Shown: positions 28,525 to 64,000 of the stretch, piece by piece | Position numbering within the stretch: the first letter of the stretch is position 1 | Layout of the letters: each line of letters opens with the position of its first letter | Origin: a virus | Length of the DNA: 64,000 nt | Strand: one strand, 5' to 3' | Virus record (IMG/VR): IMGVR_UViG_3300020463_000019 | Span: 2,293-66,292 of that record | Program-made: the position numbers and the translations under genes | Notes under the pieces: generated by a model | The model's database searches: none | Seen by the model: only the letters and a program-made list of their open reading frames with translations | What the model was told of the DNA's origin: nothing

Positions 28525-28884
28525 ATGGATAACATAGATACAATATTCGATAAATCAAAATATATTGCGGTCCAGCAAAACCAAGTGCAGTTACTCAAAG
28601 AATTAGTCACAGAGAAACTTACGGTTGGCCAAGGCGGCGGACTTTTCTTAATCAACAGTGAGCTACTAAACTTCTTAGATCTATTAGAACGTTCTGGTTA
28701 TGACACTGCTGTGATTAATGACATGAACGATAATCCAACTGAAATAACTAACATTAAAGAATTCAAAGATCAATGCATGGAAAAGTATGCTCAAGAGCAA
28801 AACCAAGCATTAGCAGAAATGCGTAGAATAAGAAAAGCAAGAACAGTCAAAGAGTTAGTAGATTATGACTTTGCAGAAGAATAA
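28525..28884 (+). CDS. Hypothetical protein (possible fibre assembly helper)
   Basis: 119 aa with AGGA RBS; function inferred only from position. Confidence 0.5.
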   Translation: MDNIDTIFDKSKYIAVQQNQVQLLKELVTEKLTVGQGGGLFLINSELLNFLDLLERSGYDTAVINDMNDNPTEITNIKEFKDQCMEKYAQEQNQALAEMRRIRKARTVKELVDYDFAEE

Positions 28885-29698
28885 GGGCGTTCTTCTCTTT
28901 GCTAAAAACAATCCAGACTTTAACTATATAAAACAGGCTAAAGTTTCTGCAACACTGGCAAAACATTATCTTAACGTTCCAGTAGCACTAGTTACACCCA
29001 AAGACGAATGTGACGAAGATATTAGTTTATTTGATCATGTTATAGACTGGAAAGATAAAGTTGAAGAAATAAACACACGCCCAATGTACATTGATGGCAA
29101 GTTTAAAAAAGTTAGTTGGCATAACTTGGATAGACTAACTGCCTATGATGTCTCGCCCTTTGACGAAACAATCTTAATTGACAGTGATTACTTGATACAA
29201 AATGATGTATTAAATTCAGTATGGGGTAGTAATGCACCTATGCTAATGAATACACATACTCGTATACCTTCAGAACATCAACAACATATATACGAATTAG
29301 TAATTGAAGATGGCTTTCCTAAAGTGCATTGGTTTACTGTTATGTATTTTCGTAAGTGCAAAGAAACACAAGATTGGTTTGAAGTTGCAAAATATGTAAA
29401 AGAGAATTATGATTTTTACAAAAAAACATTTAGAATTCCATATGCATATTATCGCAATGATATTACTGCTTCAATTGCCAGTCATATTATAGGTGGCTTT
29501 AGAGATGATTATATCAAATCATTGCCGGCAAGACAAATTAATAGTTTTAACACAGAACATATATTAGAAGTTGCAAAAGATAAAATTATTGTCAATACAG
29601 ATACTATTCCTGTATTGTTAAAAAATACAAATGTACATTGCTTAAACAAACATGAAATAGAAAGAAACTACGATAAGTTTATGGAGATATATTCATGA
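28865..29698 (+). CDS. GT-A fold glycosyltransferase-like (GT8/GT71-like)
   Basis: 'SPFDETILIDSDY' DxD motif; 'RND' and late His. Confidence 0.65.
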   Translation: MTLQKNKGVLLFAKNNPDFNYIKQAKVSATLAKHYLNVPVALVTPKDECDEDISLFDHVIDWKDKVEEINTRPMYIDGKFKKVSWHNLDRLTAYDVSPFDETILIDSDYLIQNDVLNSVWGSNAPMLMNTHTRIPSEHQQHIYELVIEDGFPKVHWFTVMYFRKCKETQDWFEVAKYVKENYDFYKKTFRIPYAYYRNDITASIASHIIGGFRDDYIKSLPARQINSFNTEHILEVAKDKIIVNTDTIPVLLKNTNVHCLNKHEIERNYDKFMEIYS

Positions 29699-30558
29699 GC
29701 AAAGGTTATTTTACTTTCGCACAATACAGTAAAAAGTTTGGTGACTACCCACGTATGGCATATGCACTAGCACTAAGTTTAAAAGCAAGCCAAAGAGTAG
29801 GTCCTACAGATTTAACAGTAGGAATGACTGAAGATGATTTAAAACAGTTACCCAAGCACTACTTAGATGTATTCAATGTTGAAATCATACCATGGACAGA
29901 TGAAGCAATAATGCACAACTGGAAGTTGCAAAACGAATGGAAAGTTTATCATATGTCTCCATATGATGAAACTATTAAACTTGATGCTGATATGTTGTTT
30001 ACTGTTGATATAAATTACTATTGGCAAATTATGAAAGCAAGAAACTTTGGTGTAGCAGTATGTGATACAATTCATACATTTAGAGATAAAGTAGGTGATG
30101 ATACTTACTATAGAAAAACATTTAAAGCAAATAAATTTTATAATGCATATAGTGCATTAACTTATTTTCGTAAGTGTGATGAAGCATTGACATTTTATAA
30201 TCAAGTAGAAGATATTTACAGACATTGGGAAAAGTATGCAAATGAATACATGAGAATAAATGGTAATGATGTTGCATACACAGATGAAGTATATGGAATG
30301 GCAGTAAGGTTGTTAGGCTGGCAAGATAAAGTTAGGCCACCCAAAAGTTTTAGTTTTGTACACATGAAAAGTAAATGCCAAGGACTTTTAAATTATACTG
30401 TAGATGATAGTTCATGGACTACATTCTTAGATGGACAATACAACGATGAAGGTTTGTGGATTAACAATTATTATCAAACAAAACCTTTGCACTATGTTGA
30501 AAAAAGTTGGTGTACTGATGACCTTATTACTAAACTAGAAAAACAAGCAGGCGTATAA
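29695..30558 (+). CDS. GT-A fold glycosyltransferase-like (paralog of the preceding gene)
   Basis: 'SPYDETIKLDADML' DxD; 'TDEVY', 'FVHMK'. Confidence 0.65.
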   Translation: MSKGYFTFAQYSKKFGDYPRMAYALALSLKASQRVGPTDLTVGMTEDDLKQLPKHYLDVFNVEIIPWTDEAIMHNWKLQNEWKVYHMSPYDETIKLDADMLFTVDINYYWQIMKARNFGVAVCDTIHTFRDKVGDDTYYRKTFKANKFYNAYSALTYFRKCDEALTFYNQVEDIYRHWEKYANEYMRINGNDVAYTDEVYGMAVRLLGWQDKVRPPKSFSFVHMKSKCQGLLNYTVDDSSWTTFLDGQYNDEGLWINNYYQTKPLHYVEKSWCTDDLITKLEKQAGV

Positions 30559-31148
30559 TGGACGTTAATGAACTAAACAAACTAATGGCTGAAAAGTTTG
30601 GTAGTGTACAAATAGATAAACAAGAACAACAATTTTATCTATACTACGACATGCTTGGCAAAATTACAGGCATGTCTGCGGCACCTATAGAAGAACAAAA
30701 AGATAACTTTCAAACATTTATTAATAAAGAAAAGTTTATAGAATTACAAGATGTTAATTTAAATAATTTTGTTGTGGACTCAACAAGTGACCCTGTTAGT
30801 ATTGTAGACATAAGTGCTGAATGGACAAAGAAAGATATTAATATTCCAAAACTAGATCAAAGTTTGTGGACTACAAATAGACTAGTAACTTTACAATTTG
30901 TAAAAGATAAACGCAACTTAAAAATAAAAGTTAATAATCAATTACCTGTTGCAAGAAAAATATTTGTTGTACCACAAGGACAATATATGAGAAAACTTGC
31001 AGAAATAACTTTACATACTGCTACAGATGAAGACTATCATATACCGCCATATAAAAATATAGATGGTTGTGAAATTTTAACGGAGCAAGACTTGAACAGT
31101 TTTGTTGCATATAGAGAAGTAGAAAATGAAACAGACTTATCCAATTAG
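30558..31148 (+). CDS. Hypothetical protein
   Basis: 196 aa, coupled at both ends. Confidence 0.55.
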   Translation: MDVNELNKLMAEKFGSVQIDKQEQQFYLYYDMLGKITGMSAAPIEEQKDNFQTFINKEKFIELQDVNLNNFVVDSTSDPVSIVDISAEWTKKDINIPKLDQSLWTTNRLVTLQFVKDKRNLKIKVNNQLPVARKIFVVPQGQYMRKLAEITLHTATDEDYHIPPYKNIDGCEILTEQDLNSFVAYREVENETDLSN

Positions 31149-32061
31149 TGACTTTGATGTCATCTATATCAGTTACGATGAACCAAATGCAGAAAAAAAC
31201 TGGGCAGACTTATTGAGTAAATGTCCTTGGGCAAAACGTGTACATGGCGTAAAAGGATTTGATGCCGCACACAATAAAGCCGGTGAAGTAAGTGAAACAC
31301 ACAGACTGGTTACTGTTGACGGTGATAATACAGTAAGAAAAGACTTCTTCAAGCAGACTATAGAAATAGATGAGGAAGAACAAAAAGATTATGTGTTTAG
31401 TTGGTGTGGACATAATGTTGTTAATAGTTTAGCATATGGCAATGGCGGACTGAAACTATGGCCAAAACATATTATTGAAAACATGAATAGCCATGAAAAT
31501 GATGTTAGTGAAGATGGTGCTCATAGTGTAGACTTTTGTTGGATGCACACATACTTCCAAATGGCTGATACATTTAGTGACGTTGTAGTCAATGCAAATC
31601 CTGAACAAGCATACAGAGCAGGCTTTCGTGAAGGTGTTAAGATGAGCTTAGATAGAGGTATACTTCCTGCTAAGAATAGATTCTTACAACAAAATCATAT
31701 TAAAAATATGCAACGTCTTAGTATTTGGTGTAGTGTTGGAATGGATATTGAAAACGGTGACTGGGCTATACTTGGTGCAAGGGAAGCAGTATGTTTAACT
31801 AATTTAGACAGTTGGAATCATACAAACATTGCAGATTATGATTTTATGCAAAAATTCGTAGGTGAAAAACTAGATAAGTATAATACAAGCGAAAAAAGAA
31901 GGCAACGCACAAAACACCTAGGCGATCGCCTACGCAATGAATTACACTTCCGTATAGCAGATATGAATGCTGACACAAGTATTTGGTTCAAAAGCGTTTA
32001 TCAGAATCCACATAGATATGGCGTAATGATTACAGAAAGTGAAGCCGACCGTAAGCGTTAA
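31126..32061 (+). CDS. Putative glycosyltransferase-like protein
   Basis: 'ISYDEPNA..RVHGVKG..VDGDN' DxD; paralog of 48598..49278. Confidence 0.55.
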   Translation: MKQTYPISDFDVIYISYDEPNAEKNWADLLSKCPWAKRVHGVKGFDAAHNKAGEVSETHRLVTVDGDNTVRKDFFKQTIEIDEEEQKDYVFSWCGHNVVNSLAYGNGGLKLWPKHIIENMNSHENDVSEDGAHSVDFCWMHTYFQMADTFSDVVVNANPEQAYRAGFREGVKMSLDRGILPAKNRFLQQNHIKNMQRLSIWCSVGMDIENGDWAILGAREAVCLTNLDSWNHTNIADYDFMQKFVGEKLDKYNTSEKRRQRTKHLGDRLRNELHFRIADMNADTSIWFKSVYQNPHRYGVMITESEADRKR

Positions 32062-32070
32062 AGGAACACT

Positions 32071-32499
32071 ATGAAAGTAATTGCACACAGAGGAAACTTG
32101 AAAGGTCCAAATCCTGAAAGAGAAAACTCTCCAGAGTATTTGCTTGAAGCAATAAAGGCTGGATATGACTGTGAAGTTGATGTTTGGTATGATAACAACA
32201 ATCAACTATACTTGGGACATAATAATCCTCAGTATAAAATTGATCATGCTTTTCTTAATAACAAGCACTTTTGGTGTCATGCTAAGAATTTAGAAGCACT
32301 AGAGTATATGTTAGTTAATGATATACATTGCTTCTGGCATGAGCATGATGAACGAACTTTGACTAGCAAAGGCTTTATTTGGACATATCCAAAGCAGGAA
32401 ACAAATTTTAAAAGTATTATCTGCATGATAAATCCAGAAGATACTGCACCAAAAGATTGTTATGGTATTTGTACTGACTGGGTAAACAAACACAAATAG
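32071..32499 (+). CDS. Glycerophosphodiester phosphodiesterase-like (minimal GDPD)
   Basis: 'IAHRGN..ENS..EVDVW..LGH'. Confidence 0.75.
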   Translation: MKVIAHRGNLKGPNPERENSPEYLLEAIKAGYDCEVDVWYDNNNQLYLGHNNPQYKIDHAFLNNKHFWCHAKNLEALEYMLVNDIHCFWHEHDERTLTSKGFIWTYPKQETNFKSIICMINPEDTAPKDCYGICTDWVNKHK

Positions 32500-32514
32500 G
32501 ATCACATATGAAGA

Positions 32515-32757
32515 ATGAAAATAAGATTTTACAAAAATTTGGATGGCATTAGATGGCTAGGTTTTATACTTGCTATGGTAAGTGCATTTATACTATCAGG
32601 CGGAAGTCAAGATGATCAATGGATAGGATGGAGTATTGCATTATTCTCTTGTTCTATATGGGTATACATGGGTTACAAGGATGAAGATGTACCAAGAGCA
32701 TTAATGGAACTAATGTATTTGGGATTAGCAATACGTGGAATTTGGAACTGGTTTTAA
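32515..32757 (+). CDS. Small membrane protein (~3 TM)
   Basis: 80 aa with three hydrophobic segments. Confidence 0.6.
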   Translation: MKIRFYKNLDGIRWLGFILAMVSAFILSGGSQDDQWIGWSIALFSCSIWVYMGYKDEDVPRALMELMYLGLAIRGIWNWF

Positions 32758-32769
32758 AAGGACAATAGT

Positions 32770-33507
32770 ATGAAAATAGCAATTTGTTTTAGCGGACAAC
32801 TTAGAGGTTCATGGAGAAAATGTGTGGAAAGTTGGAAGCAAACGTTTGGTCAGCATGAGCTATATTATTTTGGACATACATGGACAACTAGAAGTGCTCC
32901 TAATTTTATTAAAGTAACAAAAGGTATAACAGATTTAGAAACTGTAGAAAATAGAGAAATACAACAACTAAAAAGAGAACTACCGGATATAAAGTTAAAA
33001 GTGGAAGATCAAATTACTTTTACTCCTAACTTAGATCAAGCATTACATGATGTGAACTATCAAAGTCAGTTTTACGGTGTGATGCAAAGTGCAAACCTTA
33101 AACGTAAACTTGAAATTGAAGAAAATCAAAATTTTGATTTATGTGTACGAGCTCGATGGGATACAATGTTTGATGAGGAATGGAATGTGCCTGAGCCAAT
33201 CACTGATCATGCACAAGTAATACATTTAGGATTTGATGCTAACGGACACAGAATGAGAGTTGGTGACATATACTGGCAAGCACCAAGTGAAGAGTTTGAC
33301 TTAATGTGTGATTTTTATAGACACTTTCATAGACATCCTAAAGAATACTTTAACATGAATAACGATTTACATTATGGTCCAGAACATGTATTTGCATACT
33401 ACTTGAAAGAGTGTAATTTAAATTTAACACAAATTTATCCGCCAGTTAAACTTGTGAGACCAAAGCCAGAACATGTGGTAGGAGCAGGTGACTATGAAAC
33501 CGTCTAA
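32770..33507 (+). CDS. Polysaccharide-locus protein, putative glycosyltransferase ('AICFSGQLR' family)
   Basis: 'KIAICFSGQLR..HTW..FDLCVRARWD..PE'. Confidence 0.55.
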   Translation: MKIAICFSGQLRGSWRKCVESWKQTFGQHELYYFGHTWTTRSAPNFIKVTKGITDLETVENREIQQLKRELPDIKLKVEDQITFTPNLDQALHDVNYQSQFYGVMQSANLKRKLEIEENQNFDLCVRARWDTMFDEEWNVPEPITDHAQVIHLGFDANGHRMRVGDIYWQAPSEEFDLMCDFYRHFHRHPKEYFNMNNDLHYGPEHVFAYYLKECNLNLTQIYPPVKLVRPKPEHVVGAGDYETV

Positions 33508-34246
33508 AGTTGCAATTTGTTTCAGTGGTGAACTAAGAACATTTAATGTTGCATTGCCTTTGTTACTAAATGATTTTTTCTGTGATACAAATGCAGACAT
33601 ATTTTTACATACCTGGAATGTTACAGGCGACCATAAACATACAGATCTTGAACTAGCACATCTACAAGCAATAGTGCATAATAGTCATCACAATCTAGTA
33701 CAACTTAAAGTTGATTCACCTATTAATCACAGTGGGCCATTTGGCAGTATGTTGTACAGTATTCAACAAGCAAACTGGATGAAAAGACAACACGAGATAG
33801 AACAACACTTTGATTATGATTTAGTTATAAAATCACGTTACGATATGTTAGTACGTCCAGGTACAAGATTTTATATAACTGACATTACTGATAGAACTTT
33901 ATATTACAGTTTAGGTAATAGAGGTCTAGTACACACTGATGTTGGTAAACACGGACTTAGTGATATTATTTTCTGGGGAGATAGTCCTACAATAGATATT
34001 GCCTGTGACACATACAGACATTACAACTGGAAGGCTTATCCCAGATATTTAGAACTAATGAATGGCAACATGCAGGACCCTAGCGATAGTATGTTAAGTC
34101 CTGGAACATTAATATATCAACGTACACTAAAACGTAATGTTCAAGTAAGACAAATTGAACCTCAGTATAGTGAAACACTATGGCGTTCGAAAGTTGAACA
34201 CCTTGACCCTAACAACAACTTTGATGAAATTAGACAGGCTTATTAA
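33494..34246 (+). CDS. Paralog of the 'AICFSG.LR' putative glycosyltransferase
   Basis: 'KVAICFSGELR..HTW..YDLVIKSRYD'; ATG at 33494. Confidence 0.55.
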   Translation: MKPSKVAICFSGELRTFNVALPLLLNDFFCDTNADIFLHTWNVTGDHKHTDLELAHLQAIVHNSHHNLVQLKVDSPINHSGPFGSMLYSIQQANWMKRQHEIEQHFDYDLVIKSRYDMLVRPGTRFYITDITDRTLYYSLGNRGLVHTDVGKHGLSDIIFWGDSPTIDIACDTYRHYNWKAYPRYLELMNGNMQDPSDSMLSPGTLIYQRTLKRNVQVRQIEPQYSETLWRSKVEHLDPNNNFDEIRQAY

Positions 34247-35092
34247 ATGCATTTATTAACCGCAGGCGACAGTTGGACATTTGGAAGTGAAATTAAAGAT
34301 GATGGTTTACCACACACAGTAAGTGATTGGGATCCAGAAAACAATGCATTTCGTATTCCTAAAATTTGGCCTACACTATTGTCACAAAGATTAAATTGTA
34401 AAGATCATACAAACATAAGTTATCCAGCAAGTAGTAATGATAGAATAGTCAGACATACAATAAGTTGGATTACAGAACACTACCTACATGATAAAAAAGA
34501 TACCAGTGACTTATTTGTTATTGTTGGCTTTACAAGTCCTGAACGCAAAGACTTTTACTACAAAGATCCTGTTGATAGGAATCAACATGGCTGGACAACT
34601 ATTTGGCCTAATCAAACTAATCATGAATATCATCAAAGAGGTATGCAGGCATTCTTTGACAATTATAGAATGTACTTGTGGAACGAAGAAGAATATTTAA
34701 ATCGTTATGTACAACAGGTAACACAACTGCAAAACTTTTTTACTGTACATGGTATCCAATATTATTTCTTCCAAGCATTTTATAATTTAGACGAGACAGG
34801 TATCACACAATGGGTCGACAAAGGTTATATCAACAGTGAAAATGAAAAAATGGTTGTAGGAGAAAGCAACCCACGCTGGCACTTTCATTACAACAATCAA
34901 CCTGATAACTGGATATGGAAACAGGTTAACAGTGAAAGATTTTACGGCTATAATAAAGCACCACATACCTTTCATGGCTTCATTACACAAAATGCAAATG
35001 GTAGAGAAGTAATTGGAGGTATGCATCCTAATCCACATGGACATGTTTTATGGTGCCACGAACTTGGCAGATGTATAGAGGAGTTAATATGA
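34247..35092 (+). CDS. SGNH/GDSL hydrolase-fold protein
   Basis: 'AGDSWTFG', 'SSNDRI', C-terminal 'MHPNPHGH'. Confidence 0.7.
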   Translation: MHLLTAGDSWTFGSEIKDDGLPHTVSDWDPENNAFRIPKIWPTLLSQRLNCKDHTNISYPASSNDRIVRHTISWITEHYLHDKKDTSDLFVIVGFTSPERKDFYYKDPVDRNQHGWTTIWPNQTNHEYHQRGMQAFFDNYRMYLWNEEEYLNRYVQQVTQLQNFFTVHGIQYYFFQAFYNLDETGITQWVDKGYINSENEKMVVGESNPRWHFHYNNQPDNWIWKQVNSERFYGYNKAPHTFHGFITQNANGREVIGGMHPNPHGHVLWCHELGRCIEELI

Positions 35093-37427: not shown

Positions 37428-37437
37428 TGGAGTAGTT

Positions 37438-37560
37438 ATGTTATTAGTACATAAAATCAAACAATTGTTTAACGATACAGTTTATAGAATTAGACTTGAA
37501 ATTGCTTATCGTAAAAAATTAAAAGAAATCAAGAAAAAAGATCCGTTCATCTACAAATAG
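37438..37560 (+). CDS. 40-aa basic peptide (not in ORF track)
   Basis: GGAG RBS; MLLVHKIKQLFNDTVYRIRLEIAYRKKLKEIKKKDPFIYK. Confidence 0.6.
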   Translation: MLLVHKIKQLFNDTVYRIRLEIAYRKKLKEIKKKDPFIYK

Positions 37561-37568
37561 GAGGCTTT

Positions 37569-37796
37569 ATGGCTGACATTATAGATTTCAAACCCAAAGA
37601 AACAGTTTACATATTAAATTTTACTAGTCCTAGTCCTGTTAAAATGACAAAGTCAGGAAAAGAAAAAATTGCATTAGAGATTCGTAAGGTTGATGAAAAC
37701 CATGGAGTAGGACAAGCATGGGTACCTGCTTTAAACATTAGAGAAGCAAAGAGCAAACTTTGCAAAATGATAGAAGTGCTAGAGTTTCAAGACTAA
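37569..37796 (+). CDS. Hypothetical protein
   Basis: 75 aa, GGAGG RBS, TAATG-coupled to the next gene. Confidence 0.6.
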   Translation: MADIIDFKPKETVYILNFTSPSPVKMTKSGKEKIALEIRKVDENHGVGQAWVPALNIREAKSKLCKMIEVLEFQD

Positions 37797-39220: not shown

Positions 39221-39225
39221 AAAGT

Positions 39226-46899: not shown

Positions 46900-46900
46900 T

Positions 46901-56363: not shown

Positions 56364-57484
56364 TGCACTATCTCAAGCCGGAAGAAATAAAATATCTACA
56401 AGTAGATCACAACAGTGGTTGTAACCTACGTTGCCCACAGTGTGCTAGAACACACAACGGTGCTACTATACCTGGCTTGAAAAATGTAGATCTAACAGTG
56501 GATCACTACAAAGACTTCATTATACACACCCCTAACTTGAATTTTATTATGTTCTGCGGTAACTATGGCGAAGTTGTTGTTAGCAAGACCTTTTTAGAAT
56601 GCCTACAATATGTAGTAGAAAATACCACTGCAAAGATAGTAATAGCCACTAACAGTAGTGCCAGAGATGAAAGTTGGTGGAAAGAGCTCGGTCTAATGCT
56701 AAAGGGTAGAGGAAAAGTTAACTTTAGTATAGACGGATTGAGCGATACAAATCACTTGTATCGTGTGAACGCAGACTTTGATAAATGTCTGCGTAACGCA
56801 CAAGCGTTTATAGATGCAGGAGGGATAGCACGTTGGGATTACTTGGTATTTGCACACAACGAACACCAAGTAGACGGTGCAGTAGAACTAGCAAAGACTA
56901 TGGGTTTCAAAGACTTTGCAGTCAAACTCACAAACCGTTTTGTCAACGACGAACAATATAGGCATAAGAAGGCAGCAAGTGAAAGTAGTAAAGTGGTAAC
57001 ACGAAAGAGTAGTTACACACTAAGCATGGCAAGTGATGCCAAGTATACTGCCAGTGGAGTAGATGATAATACCAATATCATCAACAAGTACGGCAGTTGG
57101 AACAACTATGTGAATGCTACCCCTATTAGTTGTAAGTGGCGACCCGGAGGGCAAATATTCTTAGACTTTGAAAACAGAGTATGGCCTTGTACTTGGACTG
57201 CCAGTGGATACTTGCATCACGGAGACAACACACAAAAGACACAAGCACTACAGTTGTTTGAACGCTACGGAGAAGACTTCAATTGTTTAGACAACAAAAG
57301 CCTACCTGAAGTACTTGAACATTCATACTTTGCCCGAGACTTTTGTGCTAGTTGGAGTAGCACTATGACAGATGCTGTTCCTAAGTTGTTTGCTTGTGGA
57401 AGAACCTGTGGCACAGACTACAACTTCTCTAGTGCTCATGGTGCTAACAGAAGGATACTAGAACTTGACAAACTGGCACATTAA
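56363..57484 (+). CDS. Radical SAM/SPASM-like enzyme
   Basis: CNLRCPQC, CGNYGE, FSIDGL; C-terminal C..WPC..CGRTC. Confidence 0.85.
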   Translation: MHYLKPEEIKYLQVDHNSGCNLRCPQCARTHNGATIPGLKNVDLTVDHYKDFIIHTPNLNFIMFCGNYGEVVVSKTFLECLQYVVENTTAKIVIATNSSARDESWWKELGLMLKGRGKVNFSIDGLSDTNHLYRVNADFDKCLRNAQAFIDAGGIARWDYLVFAHNEHQVDGAVELAKTMGFKDFAVKLTNRFVNDEQYRHKKAASESSKVVTRKSSYTLSMASDAKYTASGVDDNTNIINKYGSWNNYVNATPISCKWRPGGQIFLDFENRVWPCTWTASGYLHHGDNTQKTQALQLFERYGEDFNCLDNKSLPEVLEHSYFARDFCASWSSTMTDAVPKLFACGRTCGTDYNFSSAHGANRRILELDKLAH

Positions 57485-58559
57485 AGTCCTAGACCTAGAG
57501 CCTAGTACACAATGTAATGCGGCTTGCCCTATGTGTGCAAGAAGTTTTCAAGGTGTGCAGAACAAAAACGTGCCTGTTGCCAATCTTCGAGTGAGTGCAT
57601 TACAAACACTACGCCCATACTTAAACGAACTAGAACGACTGAGCATGTGTGGCAACTATGGAGACCCTATACTCAATCCACAGTTAACAGACATCATAGA
57701 CTACTGTCTCAGTATAAACTCTAGTTGCAGTACTATCATACACACCAACGGTGGTGCTAGAACAGAGAGTTGGTGGCGAGAACTAGCAGAGTATCCTTGG
57801 CTTAAAGTAAGATTTGGCATAGATGGATTAGCAGATACAAATCACTTGTATAGACGCAAAGTGCGTTGGGATATACTAGAACGCAACTATAGAGCATTCA
57901 TAGATGCTGGTGGTGTTGCTGAATGGAAGATGATAGTATTTGGTCACAATCAACATCAAGTAGAGGCATGCAGACAACGTGCAATTGATGAAGGATTCTC
58001 AAACTTCAGTTATGTTGTAACCAACAGATTTACACAAGGCAACAAGACAGTGTTTACCATGCACCCTGACGCAGACGATAGTACTCCACTAACAGCCGCA
58101 GACTTGGACTTTGATCCAAGCAAGTTCTCTGCAAGTCATGCACAAAGGGTAAAAGGTGTTTACGACACAGGTGCATACTTGGAAGAAGGCAAACAACCAC
58201 AAAGCCACAAGCCTACAGCTATACCACAGAGAAAGTTTGCTTACACAGATAGTTGGCAACCTCAACAAAACAACATAAGTTGTTATACACAACAAGAAGG
58301 AATAGTGTATGTAAGTGCGGCTGGTGACTTGTATCCTTGTTGTCATCTAGGCTATCCATATGGTGGACAAAACAAATATGATGATTTAGCATGGCTGGAT
58401 AAGAAGACTATTAACTTGTACAACAACAGTGCTGAACAAATCTTTGGTTGGTTTGATGAAGTAGAAAGACGCTGGAGTCAAAGCAACTGCTTGGGTACAT
58501 GCACTAAGGTGTGCAGTACTGAAGGCAAACCCAATCTATATGCAGTGGAAGCCTTATAA
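57465..58559 (+). CDS. Radical SAM/SPASM-like enzyme
   Basis: CNAACPMC, CGNYGDP, FGIDGL; C-terminal YPCC..CTKVC. Confidence 0.85.
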   Translation: MTNWHIKVLDLEPSTQCNAACPMCARSFQGVQNKNVPVANLRVSALQTLRPYLNELERLSMCGNYGDPILNPQLTDIIDYCLSINSSCSTIIHTNGGARTESWWRELAEYPWLKVRFGIDGLADTNHLYRRKVRWDILERNYRAFIDAGGVAEWKMIVFGHNQHQVEACRQRAIDEGFSNFSYVVTNRFTQGNKTVFTMHPDADDSTPLTAADLDFDPSKFSASHAQRVKGVYDTGAYLEEGKQPQSHKPTAIPQRKFAYTDSWQPQQNNISCYTQQEGIVYVSAAGDLYPCCHLGYPYGGQNKYDDLAWLDKKTINLYNNSAEQIFGWFDEVERRWSQSNCLGTCTKVCSTEGKPNLYAVEAL

Positions 58560-58562
58560 ATA
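58555..58562 (+). promoter_or_regulatory. T4 late promoter consensus TATAAATA
   Basis: Exact TATAAATA 5 nt before ATG 58568. Confidence 0.6.
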
Positions 58563-58567
58563 ATACT

Positions 58568-58846
58568 ATGTATGCTATTAAAGTTTATTTAAAAAAGCCC
58601 AAACATTCAGGCTTAAAAACAAAAGGTTCTCCATTTTTAGAAAATGCACTACAAAGAGACTATTATCTCATGCGTGACTTCGATGATAACATAGTACATG
58701 TGTACACTAGAAAAGAACGTGCAGAAAAAACTGTGAACCAACTACAAGAACAAAACCCACATATGATGATAGAACTCACAGAAGACATTCCTGCAGCCGC
58801 ATTGGCCAGAGCCTTAAAAAAGAAAAGTGAAACACCCAAGACATAA
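58568..58846 (+). CDS. Hypothetical basic protein
   Basis: 92 aa behind the late promoter motif. Confidence 0.55.
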   Translation: MYAIKVYLKKPKHSGLKTKGSPFLENALQRDYYLMRDFDDNIVHVYTRKERAEKTVNQLQEQNPHMMIELTEDIPAAALARALKKKSETPKT

Positions 58847-58941
58847 TAGTATGCAGTTGCAGATCCGTGAAATTGGAAATTCAAAGAGCAGAACGCGAGA
58901 GCCGAAATCAAAATAACGGTAAGCAAATTTTTTGAGGTAGT

Positions 58942-59418
58942 ATGAAAACATATCGTAAACCCATACCAGGACATGCACTAACACAGGTGTACAACAGTCG
59001 AGCCAACGGCAGTGACTATGAATGGAAAGAAGTGTACAAACGCTTTTACGCCTATGATCCCCGTGTAGTACAAGTACTAGATGTAGATGCTGACTATATT
59101 ATAATGGAAAGACTTGAAGGTTGGACCTTAGATGATACTGCTAAGTTGTGTGCTCTTGAAGCTCGTGAACGCAAACAAATACTACAAACTGTGGTCAGTT
59201 TACACAATAGTATGCTACAATGGAGTGACGGTTGTCTAGACGAGAGTACAGTGTGGATGCACAATGACATGGACTTGCAAAATTTTATGTATACTGACTC
59301 AGGTATACGACTGATAGATCCAGAAAGTTTTGATGTTAGAACTCTTGGTATACAACACAACAACAGTAGATATGGAAAGTTCTTTGAACTGTATGTAAAA
59401 TTGCTGGCTTATGTGTAA
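58942..59418 (+). CDS. Protein kinase-like/APH-fold phosphotransferase (minimal)
   Basis: GAGG RBS; 'IIMERLEG', 'HNDMDLQNF' catalytic loop, 'LIDPES'. Confidence 0.65.
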   Translation: MKTYRKPIPGHALTQVYNSRANGSDYEWKEVYKRFYAYDPRVVQVLDVDADYIIMERLEGWTLDDTAKLCALEARERKQILQTVVSLHNSMLQWSDGCLDESTVWMHNDMDLQNFMYTDSGIRLIDPESFDVRTLGIQHNNSRYGKFFELYVKLLAYV

Positions 59419-59426
59419 ATAAGTGT

Positions 59427-59522
59427 ATGTTGAAACCCCGTGATTATATAGCACTACACTTGTTGAACTGTGTAATAGCCTGTATAGCCATAGCACTAAT
59501 GTATGAGTGGTATTTTGGTTGA
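59427..59522 (+). CDS. 31-aa hydrophobic peptide (not in ORF track)
   Basis: MLKPRDYIALHLLNCVIACIAIALMYEWYFG; TAAATA at 59416-21, 5 nt before the ATG. Confidence 0.45.
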   Translation: MLKPRDYIALHLLNCVIACIAIALMYEWYFG

Positions 59523-59740
59523 GGCCGGTCGCCAAGTGTAGACGTTGTGGATGTGATTGCCACTGTAGTGAGGATGTGTGTCCAACGTGTCCTAATGATG
59601 TTTGTGGTTACTGTGACTGCGAGGATCCGAAAAGGCTGTACAGCAGATCTCAAAAAAATTGCTACGCAAATCAAAGCGCCATCCTAGAAAACGGGGTCGA
59701 GGTTATTTTCCCACCCCACCCCTGCCAATTTCAGAAATAA
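59507..59740 (+). CDS. Cys-rich metallothionein-like peptide
   Basis: CRRCGCDCHCSEDVCPTCPNDVCGYCDC (10 Cys in 28 aa); start uncertain (GTG 59507 or TTG 59519). Confidence 0.55.
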   Translation: MVFWLRPVAKCRRCGCDCHCSEDVCPTCPNDVCGYCDCEDPKRLYSRSQKNCYANQSAILENGVEVIFPPHPCQFQK

Positions 59741-59760
59741 AAAAACTTTTTTCACTTTTC

Positions 59761-59792
59761 GAGGTTGACAGTTTCTTATACTGTGCTATATT
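59761..59792 (+). promoter_or_regulatory. Sigma70-type (early) promoter, copy 1
   Basis: GAGG-TTGACA (59765-70), 16 bp, extended -10 TGcTATATT (59787-92). Confidence 0.7.
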
Positions 59793-59844
59793 AATATTAT
59801 AGTTAAACAAAAGGGGAATAGGTAATATGACATAGCAAAAGAAA

Positions 59845-60079
59845 CGGTTTGGGATACTGGTTGCCATAAGAACTACAGTATCGGGATTTACAAGAGTGGT
59901 AGCTCTCAGGGAATCAAAGACCGAAATATAGAAACTACCCAACCTAGTCATAGGGGGCACAGCTCGACTAGGTTGCATGAATTGAGAAGCCCCCTACAGT
60001 ATAGAAGATACACAATAGTTACCTGAGGCTTATACACGTGGAGCGAGTAGGGCGGACACTGTGTATCTCCTATACTGTA
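59845..60079 (+). ncRNA. Putative structured non-coding RNA(s) with pseudoknots
   Basis: Several perfect or near-perfect inverted repeats and loop-distal pairings (see findings); no credible ORF; directly downstream of a promoter. Confidence 0.55.
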
Positions 60080-60082
60080 TTA

Positions 60083-60114
60083 GAGGTTGACAAGACTTTT
60101 ATATGTGCTATAGT
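60083..60114 (+). promoter_or_regulatory. Sigma70-type (early) promoter, copy 2
   Basis: GAGG-TTGACA (60087-92), 16 bp, TGcTATAGT (60109-14), then AAGGAG RBS for 60144. Confidence 0.75.
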
Positions 60115-60143
60115 ATACATATAGTTAGAAACAAGGAGTTGTT

Positions 60144-60524
60144 ATGTTTGTAGATGTAAGTAAGCAAGAACTAGAAGATGAGTTGTTCCTAGAAGCAGTT
60201 GATCATTATAACAAAATGAAAGCTGAACTTGGTATGGTTAGCCAGTGGGACATACATGTAGGCAACGGTATGTTTGCTGCTGATGACTGCTTGTTGCAAA
60301 GTGACAAGCAATACAAAGTCACTTATACATATATTGAAAGCATGGGCGACACCATGGATGATGTGCAGTGGGCAGAGGTAAGTATGTTTGCTCCAAGTGG
60401 TAGTATAAAGGATTTATGGTTTGCCGCTGATAGTTGTATTAGGCAGAGTGGTACACACCATTCATACATAGAAGACTTTGAAATGCAGGAGGACGGAACA
60501 CTTGCTCTTGTAACAGGAAGTTAA
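60144..60524 (+). CDS. Acidic hypothetical protein (likely early gene)
   Basis: 126 aa, strong RBS, own promoter. Confidence 0.65.
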   Translation: MFVDVSKQELEDELFLEAVDHYNKMKAELGMVSQWDIHVGNGMFAADDCLLQSDKQYKVTYTYIESMGDTMDDVQWAEVSMFAPSGSIKDLWFAADSCIRQSGTHHSYIEDFEMQEDGTLALVTGS

Positions 60525-60530
60525 TAAACA

Positions 60531-60594
60531 AAAGGGTGACGACTAGCCGGGGAAAACTAAAGGCGTAAAAGTCCCAACCTAGAGTACACCCTTT
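60531..60594 (+). other. Intergenic imperfect stem-loop
   Basis: AAAGGGTG/CACCCTTT outer stem with inner CTAG/CTAG and GGGA/TCCC pairings. Confidence 0.5.
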
Positions 60595-60614
60595 CCAAGT
60601 AGAAGGAATTTGAT

Positions 60615-61172
60615 ATGCAATATTTGATTGCTGGTAATCCTGCGTATGGATTATCTGCCGCCATTGCCGATCGCATAAGCACAGACCAATGGCACAGTAG
60701 AAGTTTCAATGATGTAGATCTAACGAGCGTAGCGAGTCAAAAGCAGTTTGCAAACGATAGTCTACTAGTAGATGTAACCATAGTAGTAAGTTGCCTCTGG
60801 GGTTATGAACAGGTTAAACTAGTAGAACGAGTAGCAAAGGCCTGGGCGGAACATCAGCACGATGGATATCTCGTAGTGCTAGGAAGTAGTGCCGATACTC
60901 CAGTTAAAGGAACTGCTTGGGGATACCCTGCAGAGAAGAAGGCCTTACGAGCATACTGTAGACAACTAAGCCAAATGAGTGCAGGCGAGAATTCACATAG
61001 ATTCCGTTGTACATACCTCTCTCCGGGTAATATGCACACACCCAAACAGGATGAGAAAATGCCAGGTGTAGTTAAACTAAATACAGCGTATGTCGCAGAT
61101 GTAATAGTCTGGTTGACAAATCAGCCAAAACATGTTAATATAAGTGAACTAACCCTGGACGCTATTCCTTGA
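60615..61172 (+). CDS. Short-chain dehydrogenase/reductase (atypical)
   Basis: 'AGNPAYGLS', 'GSS', 'YPAEK' YxxxK, 'SPG'. Confidence 0.7.
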   Translation: MQYLIAGNPAYGLSAAIADRISTDQWHSRSFNDVDLTSVASQKQFANDSLLVDVTIVVSCLWGYEQVKLVERVAKAWAEHQHDGYLVVLGSSADTPVKGTAWGYPAEKKALRAYCRQLSQMSAGENSHRFRCTYLSPGNMHTPKQDEKMPGVVKLNTAYVADVIVWLTNQPKHVNISELTLDAIP

Positions 61173-62329
61173 CAACTGACAACTATCCAAGCAAGCCGTG
61201 TGCTGCTCCTCTAACCAGTGTAGCAATAAAGCCCAACGGCCGGCTTCGCCCCTGTTGTTGGTGGACAGATGATGTAGAACCCAGACTAGAAGATCGTGGT
61301 ATAAAACAGTATATCTGGCAAGACCTCGCGGCTATGTATAAGAACATGGAAAAAGGCATATGGCCAAAAGGTTGTAACAAGTGTAATACCACACAAAAGA
61401 GTCGGTACGATCACTATGAAAGACGCTATCCTAATGCCAGAAACGAACCTCAACGACTAAGAACAATGGACCTCCGCTTTGGTACACTGTGTAATGCCAG
61501 TTGTATTACATGTAGTAGTACTAATTCAAACTATTTCTACAAAGTAAAACGGCAGGGTCTTTATCTAACACCCGAACATCAACCATTTGACAGCCAGGCC
61601 AAGATCGATGCATATGAAGCAGAACAAGATTGGTGGAAAAAAGAACGTAATATCAATGACTTATTAGAGAACCTTGACACAGTGGATCACCTCTATATAA
61701 CTGGTGGTGAACCTACTATCAATCCTATGTTTCATAGTATACTAGAACACTTACATAAACAAGGTCGAACCAAGAGTGTAAGCATAGAAATAAACACCAA
61801 TGGCACCAACCTCAACCGTCACTTTAAACAATTGGTACAACCATTTAAAAAATTAGTTCTTTTTAGCATAGATGGCCATGGAGTGTTAAACAATGCAATG
61901 CGATATCCCACCAAGTTCTCCGCAGTAGAAAAGAACATACTAGCATACAGTGATATAGATAGTGGCCTAGGTGACGAAGTAATAGTAACGCCCACTGTAT
62001 GTGTGTTTAATTTCTTTGAATTAGTCAAGTTATTCGACTGGTGTGCGTTCAACAACATAGAAGTAACCCATCAATTGAACGTTCTTAATAGGCCAAGATG
62101 GCAAAGTTTGAGTCAATTACCTGACAATCTACTACAGCAAGGATTAACACAGTTGCGAACCGCCGGCTATGATCACCATGCAAACACTATACAGAGTCGT
62201 ATACAGGGTGTGAGTTATGAAAAAGATCTTTTATTAACATGGGAGGATACTAAAAAGCGTACACTACAGTGGTTTAACAGTAGACAGTTTAATCCAAGTA
62301 TTACAGGAATACCAGATATCAATGCGTAA
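61169..62329 (+). CDS. Radical SAM enzyme with N-terminal Twitch/SPASM-like domain
   Basis: CAAP..PCC..CNKC; CNASCITC; TGGEPT. Confidence 0.85.
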   Translation: MTTDNYPSKPCAAPLTSVAIKPNGRLRPCCWWTDDVEPRLEDRGIKQYIWQDLAAMYKNMEKGIWPKGCNKCNTTQKSRYDHYERRYPNARNEPQRLRTMDLRFGTLCNASCITCSSTNSNYFYKVKRQGLYLTPEHQPFDSQAKIDAYEAEQDWWKKERNINDLLENLDTVDHLYITGGEPTINPMFHSILEHLHKQGRTKSVSIEINTNGTNLNRHFKQLVQPFKKLVLFSIDGHGVLNNAMRYPTKFSAVEKNILAYSDIDSGLGDEVIVTPTVCVFNFFELVKLFDWCAFNNIEVTHQLNVLNRPRWQSLSQLPDNLLQQGLTQLRTAGYDHHANTIQSRIQGVSYEKDLLLTWEDTKKRTLQWFNSRQFNPSITGIPDINA

Positions 62330-62574
62330 AACACCCATCAAATGTGAAATAAACGTGCCAACCGTGTTGTATGAAGCTACAAAGCGTGTTAACGGTGCAT
62401 ATAGAGCGGTTATCAACTGTTTCCAAAGGCTTTCAACCCCGTCGTCCTCATCAGAGAACCATGGTTTTAGAAAAATTTTCACACCTTTGTCACTTAGTGT
62501 TTTAATTCATATTATACTGTATACACTGTTGTTTTATGCTTATTAATGGATATTAAAGGAATCTTTATTGTAGT

Positions 62575-63696
62575 ATGGCTTATCATAGTTTAGATAGTAT
62601 CATAGACATGCATGTAGAAATATCAAATAGATGTAATGCCGCTTGTCCTATGTGTGCTAGAAATGATTTCGGCGGTGCTACTAAGAGTGATCTACAGTTA
62701 GATGAATGGACTACCGCAGATATTGATAGCATCTTTACGGGTGAACATTCAAACTTACAAAACGTTATGTTTTGTGGTACTCATGGTGATCCTTGTGTAG
62801 CAAAGAATAGTTTATATGCAGTAGATACTATCAAGAACAAGTATGATGCTAGTGTAGAGTTCTACTCTAATGCTAGTATGCGAGACAAAGAATGGTGGGC
62901 TAACTTGGGTAGTTTACTCAATAATAAGTATCCGCATCACACGCATTATAGACGTAATGACTTGGCTATCTTTAGTATAGACGGATTAGAAGATACCAAT
63001 CATCTATATAGACGCCGTACAAATTATAAAAAGATAATAGAGAATGCTAGTGCTTTTATAAGTGCTGGTGGTATTGCCCGCTGGGATTTCATAGTGTTTA
63101 AACACAATGAACATCAAGTTGAACAGGCTGAACACATAGCAAGTGAACTAGGATTCAAACAATTTAGAGTGCGTAAGACTAGCCGTTTTGATTATTCACC
63201 GGACGGTCCAGATAAATGGCGAGTAAAAGATAAGAAAGGTAACATAGAATACTACATAGAACCACCCAGTAAAAAATGGCGTAACCCCGAGAGCAACAAA
63301 TTTGTTGCATTAAAAGCGTCCCACGGGAGCATTGAGAACTACTACAATGTTGCACCCATTGAATGTTTATATAAAAATGAATTTAAAAGAATATATGTAA
63401 ATGCATATGCCAAAGTATATCCTTGTTGTTATATAAGTGATGATAGTTATCCACACAAAAATGCCATATATAAAGATACACAGGCTAAGATCTTTTCGCG
63501 TTGGGGCGACGAATTCAACAGTTTAAGAAGCAATAGTTGGCAGGAAATATTGGATCATGAATGGATGAATGAAGAATTAGAACGCAGTTGGGGAACCAAT
63601 CTAGCAGGAGGTAAACTAATGCGTTGTGCTAGAACTTGTGGAAAAGGTTATTCACCAATTAAATCGCAGAGCACGGATACAGTATTAAATGGATAA
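62575..63696 (+). CDS. Radical SAM/SPASM-like enzyme
   Basis: CNAACPMC, CGTHGDP, FSIDGL; YPCC..CARTC. Confidence 0.85.
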   Translation: MAYHSLDSIIDMHVEISNRCNAACPMCARNDFGGATKSDLQLDEWTTADIDSIFTGEHSNLQNVMFCGTHGDPCVAKNSLYAVDTIKNKYDASVEFYSNASMRDKEWWANLGSLLNNKYPHHTHYRRNDLAIFSIDGLEDTNHLYRRRTNYKKIIENASAFISAGGIARWDFIVFKHNEHQVEQAEHIASELGFKQFRVRKTSRFDYSPDGPDKWRVKDKKGNIEYYIEPPSKKWRNPESNKFVALKASHGSIENYYNVAPIECLYKNEFKRIYVNAYAKVYPCCYISDDSYPHKNAIYKDTQAKIFSRWGDEFNSLRSNSWQEILDHEWMNEELERSWGTNLAGGKLMRCARTCGKGYSPIKSQSTDTVLNG

Positions 63697-64000
63697 AGTA
63701 GCAAGTTATTTCAAGTTTAATCCCACTGGAGCATTCAGTGTAGACTGGTATATTGGCAAACGTTGTAACTTCTCATGCAGTTATTGTGTGGACTATTTGC
63801 ATGATAATTACAGTAAACATGTGCCCTTGGAGAATATGAAAGCACTTGCTGATAGTATTATAGACAAGCATGGACACAATGTATTTTGGAGTTTAACTGG
63901 CGGTGAACCCACTATCAATCCCAAGTTCATGGACTTGTGCCGGTATATCAAACATGAACGTGGTGCCAGACATGTTAGTATTACCACAAATGGAACCAGA
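63689..64000 (+). CDS. Radical SAM enzyme, partial (runs off the window; not in ORF track)
   Basis: Translated by hand: MDKVASYF..DWYIGKRCNFSCSYC..LTGGEPT..TTNGTR; same subfamily as 50174. Confidence 0.85.
   Translation, partial: MDKVASYFKFNPTGAFSVDWYIGKRCNFSCSYCVDYLHDNYSKHVPLENMKALADSIIDKHGHNVFWSLTGGEPTINPKFMDLCRYIKHERGARHVSITTNGTR

Follow-up and report, generated by a model that had tools for sequence, protein, structure and literature searches.

The 64,000-nucleotide stretch of DNA analysed here, referred to below as the window, comprises bases 2293-66292 of IMGVR_UViG_3300020463_000019, a linear viral contig of 66,292 bp from IMG/VR. CheckV places the contig at 19% completeness, implying a genome of roughly 350 kb and an uncultured marine jumbo phage. 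Directly after its baseplate and fibre genes, the window carries an island of biosynthetic genes (28525-64000), which is the subject of this report. As the end of the window coincides with that of the contig, the island runs off the contig end. It holds 41 open reading frames (ORFs) of at least 80 aa, every one on the + strand, as are all substantial ORFs of the whole window. Neighbouring ORFs overlap or abut at 25 of the 40 junctions and are separated by 17 nt or less at 31 of them, so that an initial sequence-only reading of this DNA was correct in describing one co-oriented and largely translationally coupled run after the fibre genes. The families encoded and the conserved linkage described below support the view, also taken in that reading, that the gene set is phage-borne and builds and tailors nucleotide sugars and glycans. 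Its gene list proved largely correct as well, except that most of the glycosyltransferase (GT)-like proteins, the methyltransferase, the SDR and the kinase are weak or unconfirmed assignments.

The Pfam scan took in 40 of the 41 island ORFs, leaving out the 92-aa ORF at 58568-58846. A curated cut-off was passed by 14 of the scanned ORFs, and 13 matched no Pfam family at E <= 0.01. Ten early ORFs searched against PHROGs matched only families of 'unknown function', and megablast of 28000-52000 against GenBank phages gave zero matches. Whole-window scans for tRNAs and Rfam families found none. Promoter-like and terminator-like sites occur in the window only at chance frequency, and the 22-42 kb region is without any + strand terminator-like site.

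The first 28.4 kb of the window encode baseplate and fibre proteins:

First 28.4 kb, + strand: VgrG-like spike (DUF2345, 1.9e-07)
First 28.4 kb, + strand: PAAR protein (2.5e-12)
First 28.4 kb, + strand: gp25 baseplate protein (2.8e-12)
First 28.4 kb, + strand: gp6-like wedge protein (weak match)
10054-23025, + strand: ORF of 4323 aa, lying between the gp6-like wedge gene and the fibre-type ORFs
23060-25309, + strand: fibre-type ORF, Ser+Thr 25.2%
25311-25970, + strand: fibre-type ORF, Ser+Thr 17.8%
26005-27483, + strand: fibre-type ORF, Ser+Thr 22.0%
27518-28438, + strand: fibre-type ORF, Ser+Thr 27.1%

The giant 4323-aa ORF is 55% identical over 3499 aa to a homologue in the related phage G001. 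It is also weakly akin (30% over 155 aa) to ORF361 of the cultured Ralstonia phage RsoM2USA, a protein of 2541 aa detected by mass spectrometry in virions (PMC8504454). The fibre region (23060-28438) shows a weak match to the T7 tail-fibre N-terminal domain. Serine and threonine make up 18-27% of the four fibre-type ORFs, compared to about 10% of the island enzymes, and these four ORFs directly upstream of the island are candidate glycan acceptors.

Part of the island forms a core that is linked to these fibre genes. Its members, named here by their start positions, and a 196-aa ORF lying among them are:

28525-28884, + strand: 119-aa protein, first core gene (homologues in G001 and G003 74-81% identical, in RsoM2USA 34%)
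28865-29698, + strand: GT8-like (GT-A, DxD) protein (one weak match, Mannosyl_trans3, E 0.0019)
29695-30558, + strand: GT8-like (GT-A, DxD) protein related to 28865 (family-profile match to glycogenins)
30558-31148, + strand: 196-aa ORF of no family, with homologues in close relatives only
31126-32061, + strand: DxD protein of a virus-only family, core gene, paralogue of 48598 (RsoM2USA 44%)
41062-42417, + strand: N-terminal-twitch (N-twitch) radical S-adenosylmethionine (SAM) protein, core copy (NF033640, 3e-98; RsoM2USA 40%)
48598-49278, + strand: second DxD paralogue, core gene (RsoM2USA 41%)
49256-49963, + strand: protein with methyltransferase-like motifs, core gene (RsoM2USA 31%)

The association of core and fibre genes can be followed in 70 distant loci, defined as IMG/VR loci whose 29695 copy is less than 50% identical. 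A 28865 homologue neighbours it on the same strand in 70 of 70, a 31126 homologue in 68, a 28525 homologue in 46 and a homologue of the giant ORF in 41, and an N-twitch radical SAM gene is found at about +2.8 kb, again on the same strand, in 55. Same-strand homologues of the fibre-type ORFs 27518 (56 of 70), 26005 (49) and 25311 (49) lie upstream; fibre-type ORF homologues in general are located 5' of the GT8-like pair in 35-56 of the 70 loci. Other island genes behave as accessories in the same set, with the nucleotidyltransferase present in 7 loci, the carbamoyltransferase in 6, the NDP-sugar (nucleoside diphosphate sugar) dehydrogenase in 5, SGNH-like genes in 1-5 and the RuBisCO-like protein (RLP) in 1. 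Fibre linkage is a feature of the small core. The RLP sugar cassette, the genes for tailoring and the array of radical SAM genes form the accessory and variable part of the island.

Closer relatives retain more of the arrangement. In G001 (306.7 kb, 87% complete) and G003 the fibre-to-island order persists up to ~53.6 kb of the window at 50-88% amino acid identity, and the G004 contig, which begins inside the 29695 homologue, keeps the order from that point. The G001 island measures ~47 kb across the contig ends, assuming circular permutation. Baseplate genes, fibres and core, followed by radical SAM arrays, also occur on two phage contigs that are less closely related, G006:C3 and G006:C12 (loci L110-L117; 108 kb at 35.7% G+C and 44 kb at 31% G+C). 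The G006 record is labelled as a Gammaproteobacteria metagenome-assembled genome (MAG), and its phage contigs either result from faulty binning or give a weak indication of the host. The one locus reached by a scan of genome contigs with 52169 belongs to such a phage contig binned into a MAG, and we rejected it as a host assignment.

Synteny across related large phages, proposed as a check in the sequence-only reading, thus supports the core, which keeps its linkage in the distant loci, G001, G003 and RsoM2USA instead of being scattered. A chimeric join with bacterial DNA at about 28.5 kb, raised in the same reading, was rejected: one contig assembled in an independent study spans 27749-28627, four runs, each from a different study, show even read depth around 28.5 kb, and the synteny is conserved, indicating a genuine join.

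About seven GT-like proteins had been counted in the island, and profile support was obtained for 29695 alone, 28865 having its one weak match. A profile built from 40 members of the 29695 family matched glycogenins in 19 of 19 PDB hits (E 5e-4 to 6e-3), covering positions 3-109 only, and a Pfam scan of the 40 members yielded no GT8 match and no recurring family. In the D-x-D motif of the family, D97 is nearly invariant and D99 invariant. The family has 1050 unnamed homologues in the protein collection and at least 499 relatives in IMG/VR. For 31126, 48598 and the paralogues 32770 and 33488 (listed below), the assignment draws on just motifs, automatic Atlas names and predicted models. PDB profile searches with the 31126, 48598, 32770/33488 and 49256 families returned nothing significant. 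Alignments with hhalign of the 48598, 32770/33488 and 29695 families to a Pfam-validated GT2 alignment were not significant (probability ~1% for the DxD pair and the 32770/33488 families), nor were those among the 32770/33488, 31126 and 29695 families. The AlphaFold models are confident alpha/beta folds both for the 48598 family (predicted local distance difference test, pLDDT, 92.7; predicted template-modelling score, pTM, 0.87) and for 32770/33488 (pLDDT 87.0, pTM 0.88). One Atlas cluster near 31126 carries the automatic name 'GT2-like', and one near 32770/33488 was auto-named 'capsular polysaccharide biosynthesis'. The families of both pairs, 31126/48598 and 32770/33488, are confined to viruses. 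A GT-like nature of 42269 found no support of any kind, and the methyltransferase assignment of 49256 draws on motifs only.

Between the first core genes and the core radical SAM gene lies the RLP sugar-nucleotide cassette with its neighbours:

32071-32499, + strand: GDPD-like protein, 142 aa (phrog_34507, 3e-26)
32515-32757, + strand: 80-aa hydrophobic ORF with one predicted transmembrane (TM) segment
32770-33507, + strand: alpha/beta family protein, paralogue of 33488 (phrog_13607)
33488-34246, + strand: alpha/beta family protein, paralogue of 32770
34247-35092, + strand: SGNH-like protein (DUF6071, 4.6e-20; GDS motif)
35206-35913, + strand: DHOD-like TIM-barrel ORF (DHO_dh, 8.9e-19; NCBIfam, 8.2e-18, below cut-off)
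35903-36688, + strand: SGNH-like protein (N-terminal GDS motif)
36681-37427, + strand: SGNH-like protein (DUF6071, 2e-07; GDS motif)
37760-38518, + strand: NDP-sugar pyrophosphorylase (family profile to PDB 4evw, 2.6e-37)
38514-38877: stretch skipped in some contigs, with the 84-aa ORF 38628, absent from G001, G003 and G004
38879-39208, + strand: small cupin (profile matches cupins)
39226-40371, + strand: RLP of the phage 'IV-like' clade (Pfam RuBisCO_large, 1.6e-32, above cut-off)
40368-41069, + strand: phosphomannomutase (PMM), eukaryotic-type HAD (Pfam PMM, 1.3e-24)

At E <= 0.001 the RLP matched 99 PDB sequences, with the form III protein 2cwx as top hit (4.7e-31, residues 14-375). Compared to 2cwx, it keeps the KPK (K175/K177) and K-x-D-E (K201/D203/E204) motifs, while H294 is replaced by Q, R295 by K and K334 by Y (spinach numbering). 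Judged from its residues, RLP 39226 is not a carboxylase. IMG/VR contains 182 relatives of it, and the 50,697 GenBank phage records contain none. In 80 fetched RLP loci, the companions are the nucleotidyltransferase (79 of 80), the GDPD-like protein (66), the cupin (58) and the 32770 family (33). In other phage lineages the cassette adjoins genes for GDP-mannose 4,6-dehydratase (2.9e-113; 18 loci) and for methyltransferases, FkbM-type in 20 loci and also CmcI-like, as well as GT4 and GT2. These conserved companions, together with the neighbours in other lineages, indicate that the RLP belongs to a nucleotide-sugar cassette, which is probably of the GDP-hexose type. Our literature search found no paper tying a phage RLP to a nucleotidyltransferase.

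The nucleotidyltransferase named in the sequence-only reading is borne out by the match of 37760 to 4evw, the next PDB matches of its profile being mannose-1-phosphate guanylyltransferases at ~2e-11. Upstream of this TTG-started gene are 332 nt without a listed ORF (37428-37759), and the family consensus suggests a true start a little 3' of 37760. Pfam likewise supports the RLP, the PMM and, among the tailoring genes below, the UDP-sugar dehydrogenase, DegT and carbamoyltransferase. The cupin 38879 is backed by its family profile, whose matches include a 113-aa mannose-6-phosphate isomerase at 6.6e-4. For the GDPD, the N-terminal motif is recovered by the 32071-family profile (5.1e-05), and the rest of the domain is not. 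The three proteins designated SGNH all carry a GDS motif inside their first 40 residues (34247, 35903 and 36681), which we take to be SGNH block I, and DUF6071 is above its cut-off in 34247 and 36681; no SGNH model was matched, and we infer that DUF6071 is SGNH-like. Among these genes sits the DHOD-like 35206, which had been overlooked in the sequence-only list and has no homologue in G001, G003, G004 or the 80 RLP loci.

Contigs of two independent runs (X4 and X5) skip exactly 32510-32768 and 38514-38877, showing that strains without ORFs 32515 and 38628 exist. Weak joints from 31274/31644 to 41625, with just 29-32 letters on the shorter side, hint that some relatives are without the 10-kb accessory block.

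Downstream of the core radical SAM gene follow genes for sugar tailoring:

42269-43594, + strand: ORF of ~400-440 aa, no family (47-49% identity in close relatives)
43591-44736, + strand: NDP-sugar dehydrogenase (UDPG_MGDP_dh_N, 2.9e-18; central domain, 2.4e-14)
44714-45232, + strand: 2-oxoglutarate (2OG)-oxygenase-like cupin (Asp_Arg_Hydrox, 0.001)
45192-45923, + strand: short DegT-like aminotransferase, 243 aa (DegT, 2.4e-15)
45892-46899, + strand: StrB1-type amidinotransferase (PDB 1bwd, 1.6e-79)
46901-48412, + strand: NodU/CmcH carbamoyltransferase (Carbam_trans_C, 3.2e-51; Carbam_trans_N, 1.2e-38)

The listed TTG start of 42269 overlaps the preceding gene by 149 nt. The dehydrogenase 43591 also matches TIGR03026 (2.4e-40), below the cut-off of that model. 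The amidinotransferase is among the firmest assignments of the sequence-only reading, as 45892 aligns to the streptomycin enzyme StrB1 (1bwd) over residues 2-334 of 335, followed by AGAT, HsvA and SxtG. Its C-terminal G-G-G-H-H-C aligns to G-G-G-F-H-C of 1bwd and ends in the cysteine that is presumably catalytic in amidinotransferases. In the carbamoyltransferase 46901, matched by 146 GenBank phage records, the N- and C-terminal domains score 133.8 and 173.7 bits, both above the Pfam cut-offs.

The distal part of the island is dominated by a radical SAM array:

50174-58559, + strand: array part 1, radical SAM genes at 50174, 51039, 52169, 53596, 54936, 56363 and 57465
58568-60524, + strand: insert of a 92-aa ORF, a 158-aa kinase-like fragment, a 725-nt gap and a 126-aa ORF
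58942, + strand: the kinase-like fragment, 158 aa (APH, 0.0064; Bud32, 0.0042)
60615-61172, + strand: short SDR-like protein (NCBIfam SDR models from 8.3e-05, all below cut-offs)
61169-64000, + strand: array part 2, radical SAM genes at 61169 (N-twitch), 62575 and 63689 (cut)

Pfam PF04055 was matched at E <= 0.01 by 11 ORFs, four of them above the cut-off, and CxxxCxxC is present in 11 of 11, in agreement with the earlier count of at least 11 radical SAM enzymes. Five copies exceed the curated cut-off of 170 bits of NF033640, the NCBIfam 'twitch domain-containing radical SAM protein': 41062 (329.5 bits), 52169 (412.9), 53596 (281.9), 54936 (362.8) and 61169 (207.4). The other five radical SAM ORFs scanned reach 30-46 bits only. 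The NF033640 copies have a Cys-rich domain N-terminal to the radical SAM core, with CxxxCxxC at residues 108-158, and the N-terminal region of 52169, 53596 and 54936 matches Pfam SPASM. A second radical SAM family comprises 51039, 56363, 57465 and 62575. The paralogues of the window are 18-39% identical to each other. For the class-A radical SAM family, IMG/VR contains 491 relatives. The kinase fold of 58942, at 0.004-0.006 only, and the SDR 60615, at 8.3e-05 below all cut-offs, remain unconfirmed, although 60615 has a 66% identical homologue in the locus L119.

Radical SAM content varies widely among relatives, with 12, 6, 16, 15 and 1 PF04055 matches in G001-G005, and 8 of the 11 window copies lack a counterpart exceeding 40% identity in G001, G003 or G004. 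The array order of the window recurs in the loci L119, L120 and L121 at 59-95% identity. In L119 (12023-17006) the array reaches further than in the window, as a complete 63689 homologue of 422 aa is followed by two more radical SAM ORFs; CxxxCxxC is present in 13 of 16 ORFs across 17 kb. The 58.5-60.5 kb insert is absent between the 57465 and 60615 homologues of L119. Within its 725-nt gap lies a GTG-started ORF of 77 aa (59507-59740, + strand) with a CxxC-type cysteine run. A search of 118 fetched loci gave no homologue of this Cys-rich ORF, for which reason we rejected it as a precursor of a ribosomally synthesised and post-translationally modified peptide (RiPP). G+C is raised to 0.40-0.416 at 56001-62000, compared to 0.33-0.36 across most of the island, and this stretch coincides with the distal, lineage-specific portion of the array.

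NF033640 is rare in cells: it was above cut-off in none of 14 control genomes and was found in 2 of 400 sampled Pseudomonadota (MAG excluded). In G107, four tandem N-twitch copies lie between RmlC/RmlD/Wzm and TylF-type and class I methyltransferases/WbsX. One of these four copies is part of an 854-aa ORF on contig G107:C19 (locus L106, 8579-11143, - strand), in which the ABC ATPase Wzt and its C-terminal carbohydrate-binding domain are fused to the N-twitch radical SAM domain. In G178, a single N-twitch copy adjoins GT2 and an NDP-sugar epimerase/dehydratase. N-twitch genes thus occur in polysaccharide clusters in two of two bacterial genomes examined, contexts that point to glycans rather than peptides as substrates (n = 2). 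Our literature searches did not find the term 'N-terminal twitch' in the papers listed; joining radical SAM, O-antigen and twitch, they matched twitching motility only, and they gave no paper linking jumbo phages to radical SAM genes and glycosyltransferases.

The sequence-only reading knew of no characterised phage pathway of such breadth. This overstates the case, as comparable uncharacterised islands are in print. The hypervariable region (HRC) of pelagimyophages and cyanomyophages, with a mean size of 44.6 kb, lies next to the tail-fibre module and is itself uncharacterised (Zaragoza-Solas et al. 2020, PMC7029224). It resembles the island in combining fibre genes with glycosyltransferases, GT8 being the commonest, and UDP-glucose dehydrogenase, and in radical SAM cassettes that differ among close relatives (PMC7029224). 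These phages are T4-like and ~140-200 kb in size, in contrast to the jumbo phage of ~350 kb studied here, and the part of that account available to us makes no mention of RLP, amidinotransferase or carbamoyltransferase, all present in the window (PMC7029224).

The Campylobacter phages CP220 and CPt10 encode 11 and 12 radical SAM proteins per genome, including an interchangeable five-gene module whose function was unknown to the authors (Timms et al. 2010, PMC2853527). A putative amidinotransferase nearby is 26% identical to 45892. CP220 and CPt10 differ from the window phage in their T4-like backbone, their similarity to the class-A radical SAM proteins of the window is limited to half-length matches at 27%, and the accessible text describes no link to fibre or sugar-nucleotide genes (PMC2853527). 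In the Synechococcus cyanophage S-SCSM2R, homologues of the triad 44714, 45192 and 45892 are adjacent at 25, 39 and 33% identity, accompanied by a radical SAM gene and five annotated glycosyltransferases. This operon spans ~8 kb versus at least 35 kb in the window and is without RLP cassette, carbamoyltransferase and radical SAM array; the authors interpret it as serving antibiotic synthesis (PMC12801897). Concerning the RLP, about 90 phage 'IV-like' RLPs have been described from Myoviridae-type and large IMG/VR phage contigs, their function left open (Jaffe et al. 2018, bioRxiv 10.1101/386292). As in the window, they form a divergent clade with carboxylase residues missing; the text at hand of that preprint gives no pathway context, whereas the window RLP has that of a sugar cassette (10.1101/386292).

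In RsoM2USA (MG752970), ORFs 354-346 represent a minimal core after baseplate genes and the virion protein ORF361, with homologues of 27518, 28525, 28865, 29695, 31126, 41062, 48598 and 49256 at 25-44% identity. Among 50,697 GenBank phage records, this phage is the sole match to 29695, 31126 and 41062. Its core site is without RLP cassette, tailoring triad and long radical SAM array, and ORFs 346-354 are all annotated as hypothetical. Some 90 kb from this core, a cluster at 123-129 kb (L081) encodes an N-twitch radical SAM protein (34% to 41062), an SGNH-like protein (25% to 36681) and a carbamoyltransferase (44%).

Viruses are known to decorate their own particles. Mycobacteriophage capsid and tail proteins and giant-virus capsid and fibril proteins are glycosylated by virus-encoded transferases, and giant viruses devote complete nucleotide-sugar pathways to the decoration of their own structural proteins. 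We propose these virion glycosylation systems as a working model for the island, which is itself known from its genes alone; to our knowledge, none of them includes radical SAM arrays, an RLP or an amidinotransferase.

We tentatively favour a cytoplasmic pathway for a heavily tailored glycan that would most likely be put on fibre or baseplate proteins. The sequence-only reading had proposed that the phage makes its own heavily modified glycan; the kind of chemistry is well supported, and the chemical steps and their order we infer as follows. The island may act as a late-expressed, wholly cytoplasmic glycan factory organised in layers. An ancestral core would form the first layer, with the 119-aa protein, the two GT8-like proteins, the two DxD paralogues, the N-twitch radical SAM protein and the methyltransferase-like protein. 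In the second layer, the mannose-6-phosphate isomerase-like cupin, phosphomannomutase and NDP-sugar pyrophosphorylase would produce a GDP-hexose-type donor, with the RLP and the short GDPD-like protein possibly feeding or diverting a sugar-phosphate precursor. The third layer would tailor the sugars. A uronate could arise through the NDP-sugar dehydrogenase, and an amine through the 2OG-oxygenase-like cupin together with the DegT-like aminotransferase; the StrB1-type amidinotransferase would convert this amine to a guanidino group. O-carbamoylation would fall to the carbamoyltransferase, and the SGNH proteins might add or remove acyl groups. As a fourth layer, the radical SAM enzymes, at least 11 in number, may edit single sugar positions by oxidation, epimerisation or C-methylation. 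The most likely destination of the finished glycan would be the Ser/Thr-rich fibre or baseplate proteins of the phage itself.

Neither the window nor the islands of G001, G003, G004 and G006:C3 encode an initiating phosphoglycosyl transferase, Wzx, Wzy or an ABC transporter. A crude hydropathy scan gave no window-island ORF with two or more TM segments, and in the islands of the relatives the only such ORFs are of 109 aa (four TM segments, G004) and 83 aa (two TM segments, G003). The conserved order of core and fibre genes, from marine phages to a Ralstonia phage, would favour a phage-encoded acceptor, though this evidence, like the lack of export genes, is indirect; an acceptor that is itself conserved among phages would account for such a core more readily than variable host O-antigens.

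Several points weigh against this interpretation. The acceptor is proposed from gene order alone, and Ser/Thr richness is usual in fibre proteins. The GT8 assignment stands at E ~1e-3 and covers the N-terminal half alone. For five of the seven putative transferases, neither a family nor a PDB entry was matched significantly, and the RLP and GDPD-like steps are without assignable chemistry. The contig is 19% complete, with the island cut at its end. The bacterial O-antigen context of the N-twitch genes (n = 2) would fit a host lipid-linked glycan equally well, and with such a target no phage export genes would be needed. The authors of the closest parallel favour modification of the host O-chain (PMC7029224).

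Remodelling of the host surface is accordingly the main rival to the glycosylation of phage fibres, and we regard it as possible, if on balance unlikely. The enzymes would act on host lipid-linked O-antigen or capsule precursors, which host transporters would export, for instance to block superinfection or to keep progeny off debris during a long infection. It would account for the bacterial N-twitch genes that belong to an ABC-type O-antigen cluster, one of them joined to Wzt, or lie next to GT2 and an epimerase near prophage recombination genes (G178), and for the UDP-sugar dehydrogenase, DegT, carbamoyltransferase and GT8, which are typical for lipopolysaccharide pathways. The fibre-adjacent region of glycosyltransferase and radical SAM genes in pelagimyophages has been interpreted in this way (PMC7029224). 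Such a role is harder to reconcile with a core kept in strict order with fibre genes in the 70 distant loci and the Ralstonia phage, although host O-antigens vary, with an island that has no initiating transferase, flippase, polymerase or transporter of its own, and with genes placed inside the structural (late) run with overlapping stops and starts. Synthesis of a free small molecule, an aminoglycoside-like or guanidino/carbamoyl sugar metabolite acting as antibiotic or signal, appears improbable. The amidinotransferase is nearest to StrB1 of streptomycin biosynthesis, ahead of AGAT, HsvA and SxtG, and DegT-type aminotransferases, carbamoyltransferases and twitch radical SAM enzymes serve aminoglycoside pathways. 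The homologues in S-SCSM2R are termed 'antibiotic synthesis genes' by the authors (PMC12801897), but the same triad lies there among five glycosyltransferases, and in the window phage the tailoring genes are accessory to a transferase-rich, fibre-linked core. The 40 scanned ORFs include no cyclitol-forming enzyme and no exporter, the absence of the former being provisional as the island is cut at the contig end.

The two remaining explanations are far less probable. Hypermodification of phage DNA, in which sugars or side chains placed on bases would allow evasion of restriction, was named as an alternative in the sequence-only reading and is now disfavoured as very improbable. Phages do glycosylate DNA and use radical SAM enzymes for base hypermodification, and Campylobacter phages rich in radical SAM genes reportedly also modify guanine (bioRxiv 10.1101/2023.04.13.536721). 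The 87% complete G001, however, has no match to either PF00303 (ThyA) or PF01702 (TGT/DpdA), models that recovered 10 of 14 and 14 of 14 positive-control genomes, respectively, which argues against the best-known routes. In addition, the island lies in the structural gene run, away from replication genes, and its conserved neighbours are fibre proteins. Maturation of a RiPP or a protein, with the SPASM/twitch array cross-linking or epimerising a peptide or structural protein, seems just as remote. Several copies weakly match PapB and StsB (sub-threshold), and the array contains the Cys-rich ORF at 59507-59740, but this ORF has no homologue in the 118 loci and sits in the insert missing from L119. 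The arrays have no conserved small precursor gene, five copies pass the NF033640 cut-off, and the bacterial contexts are polysaccharide clusters.

Several aspects of the island appear to be new, namely its size and breadth in a jumbo phage, the conserved fibre-linked core set apart from swappable cassettes, the placement of an RLP in a sugar-nucleotide cassette and of NF033640 in a polysaccharide context, and a cultured phage, RsoM2USA, carrying the core. Extending the favoured reading, one may picture a fibre-linked protein-glycosylation system of large phages in which radical SAM enzymes serve as position-specific glycan editors, and in which cassette swaps, combined with an RLP-dependent nucleotide sugar and guanidino/carbamoyl tailoring, would give each lineage its own fibre coat. 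This fuller scheme is rather doubtful as a whole. If true, it would add a second layer of host-range or shielding variation above that of the fibre sequence, and both the RLP clade of phages and the NF033640 family would gain a first function. Should the favoured reading itself hold, fibre glycosylation by phage-encoded pathways would be widespread in large phages, and the glycan coat would bear on adsorption, host range and fibre shielding. Contexts are now given to orphan groups, including the phage RLP clade, the N-twitch radical SAM family and virus-only families with confident predicted folds, and the cultured phage with its minimal core makes the question open to experiment. Should the island serve host remodelling or metabolite synthesis instead, it would still rank among the largest auxiliary biosynthetic islands in a phage.

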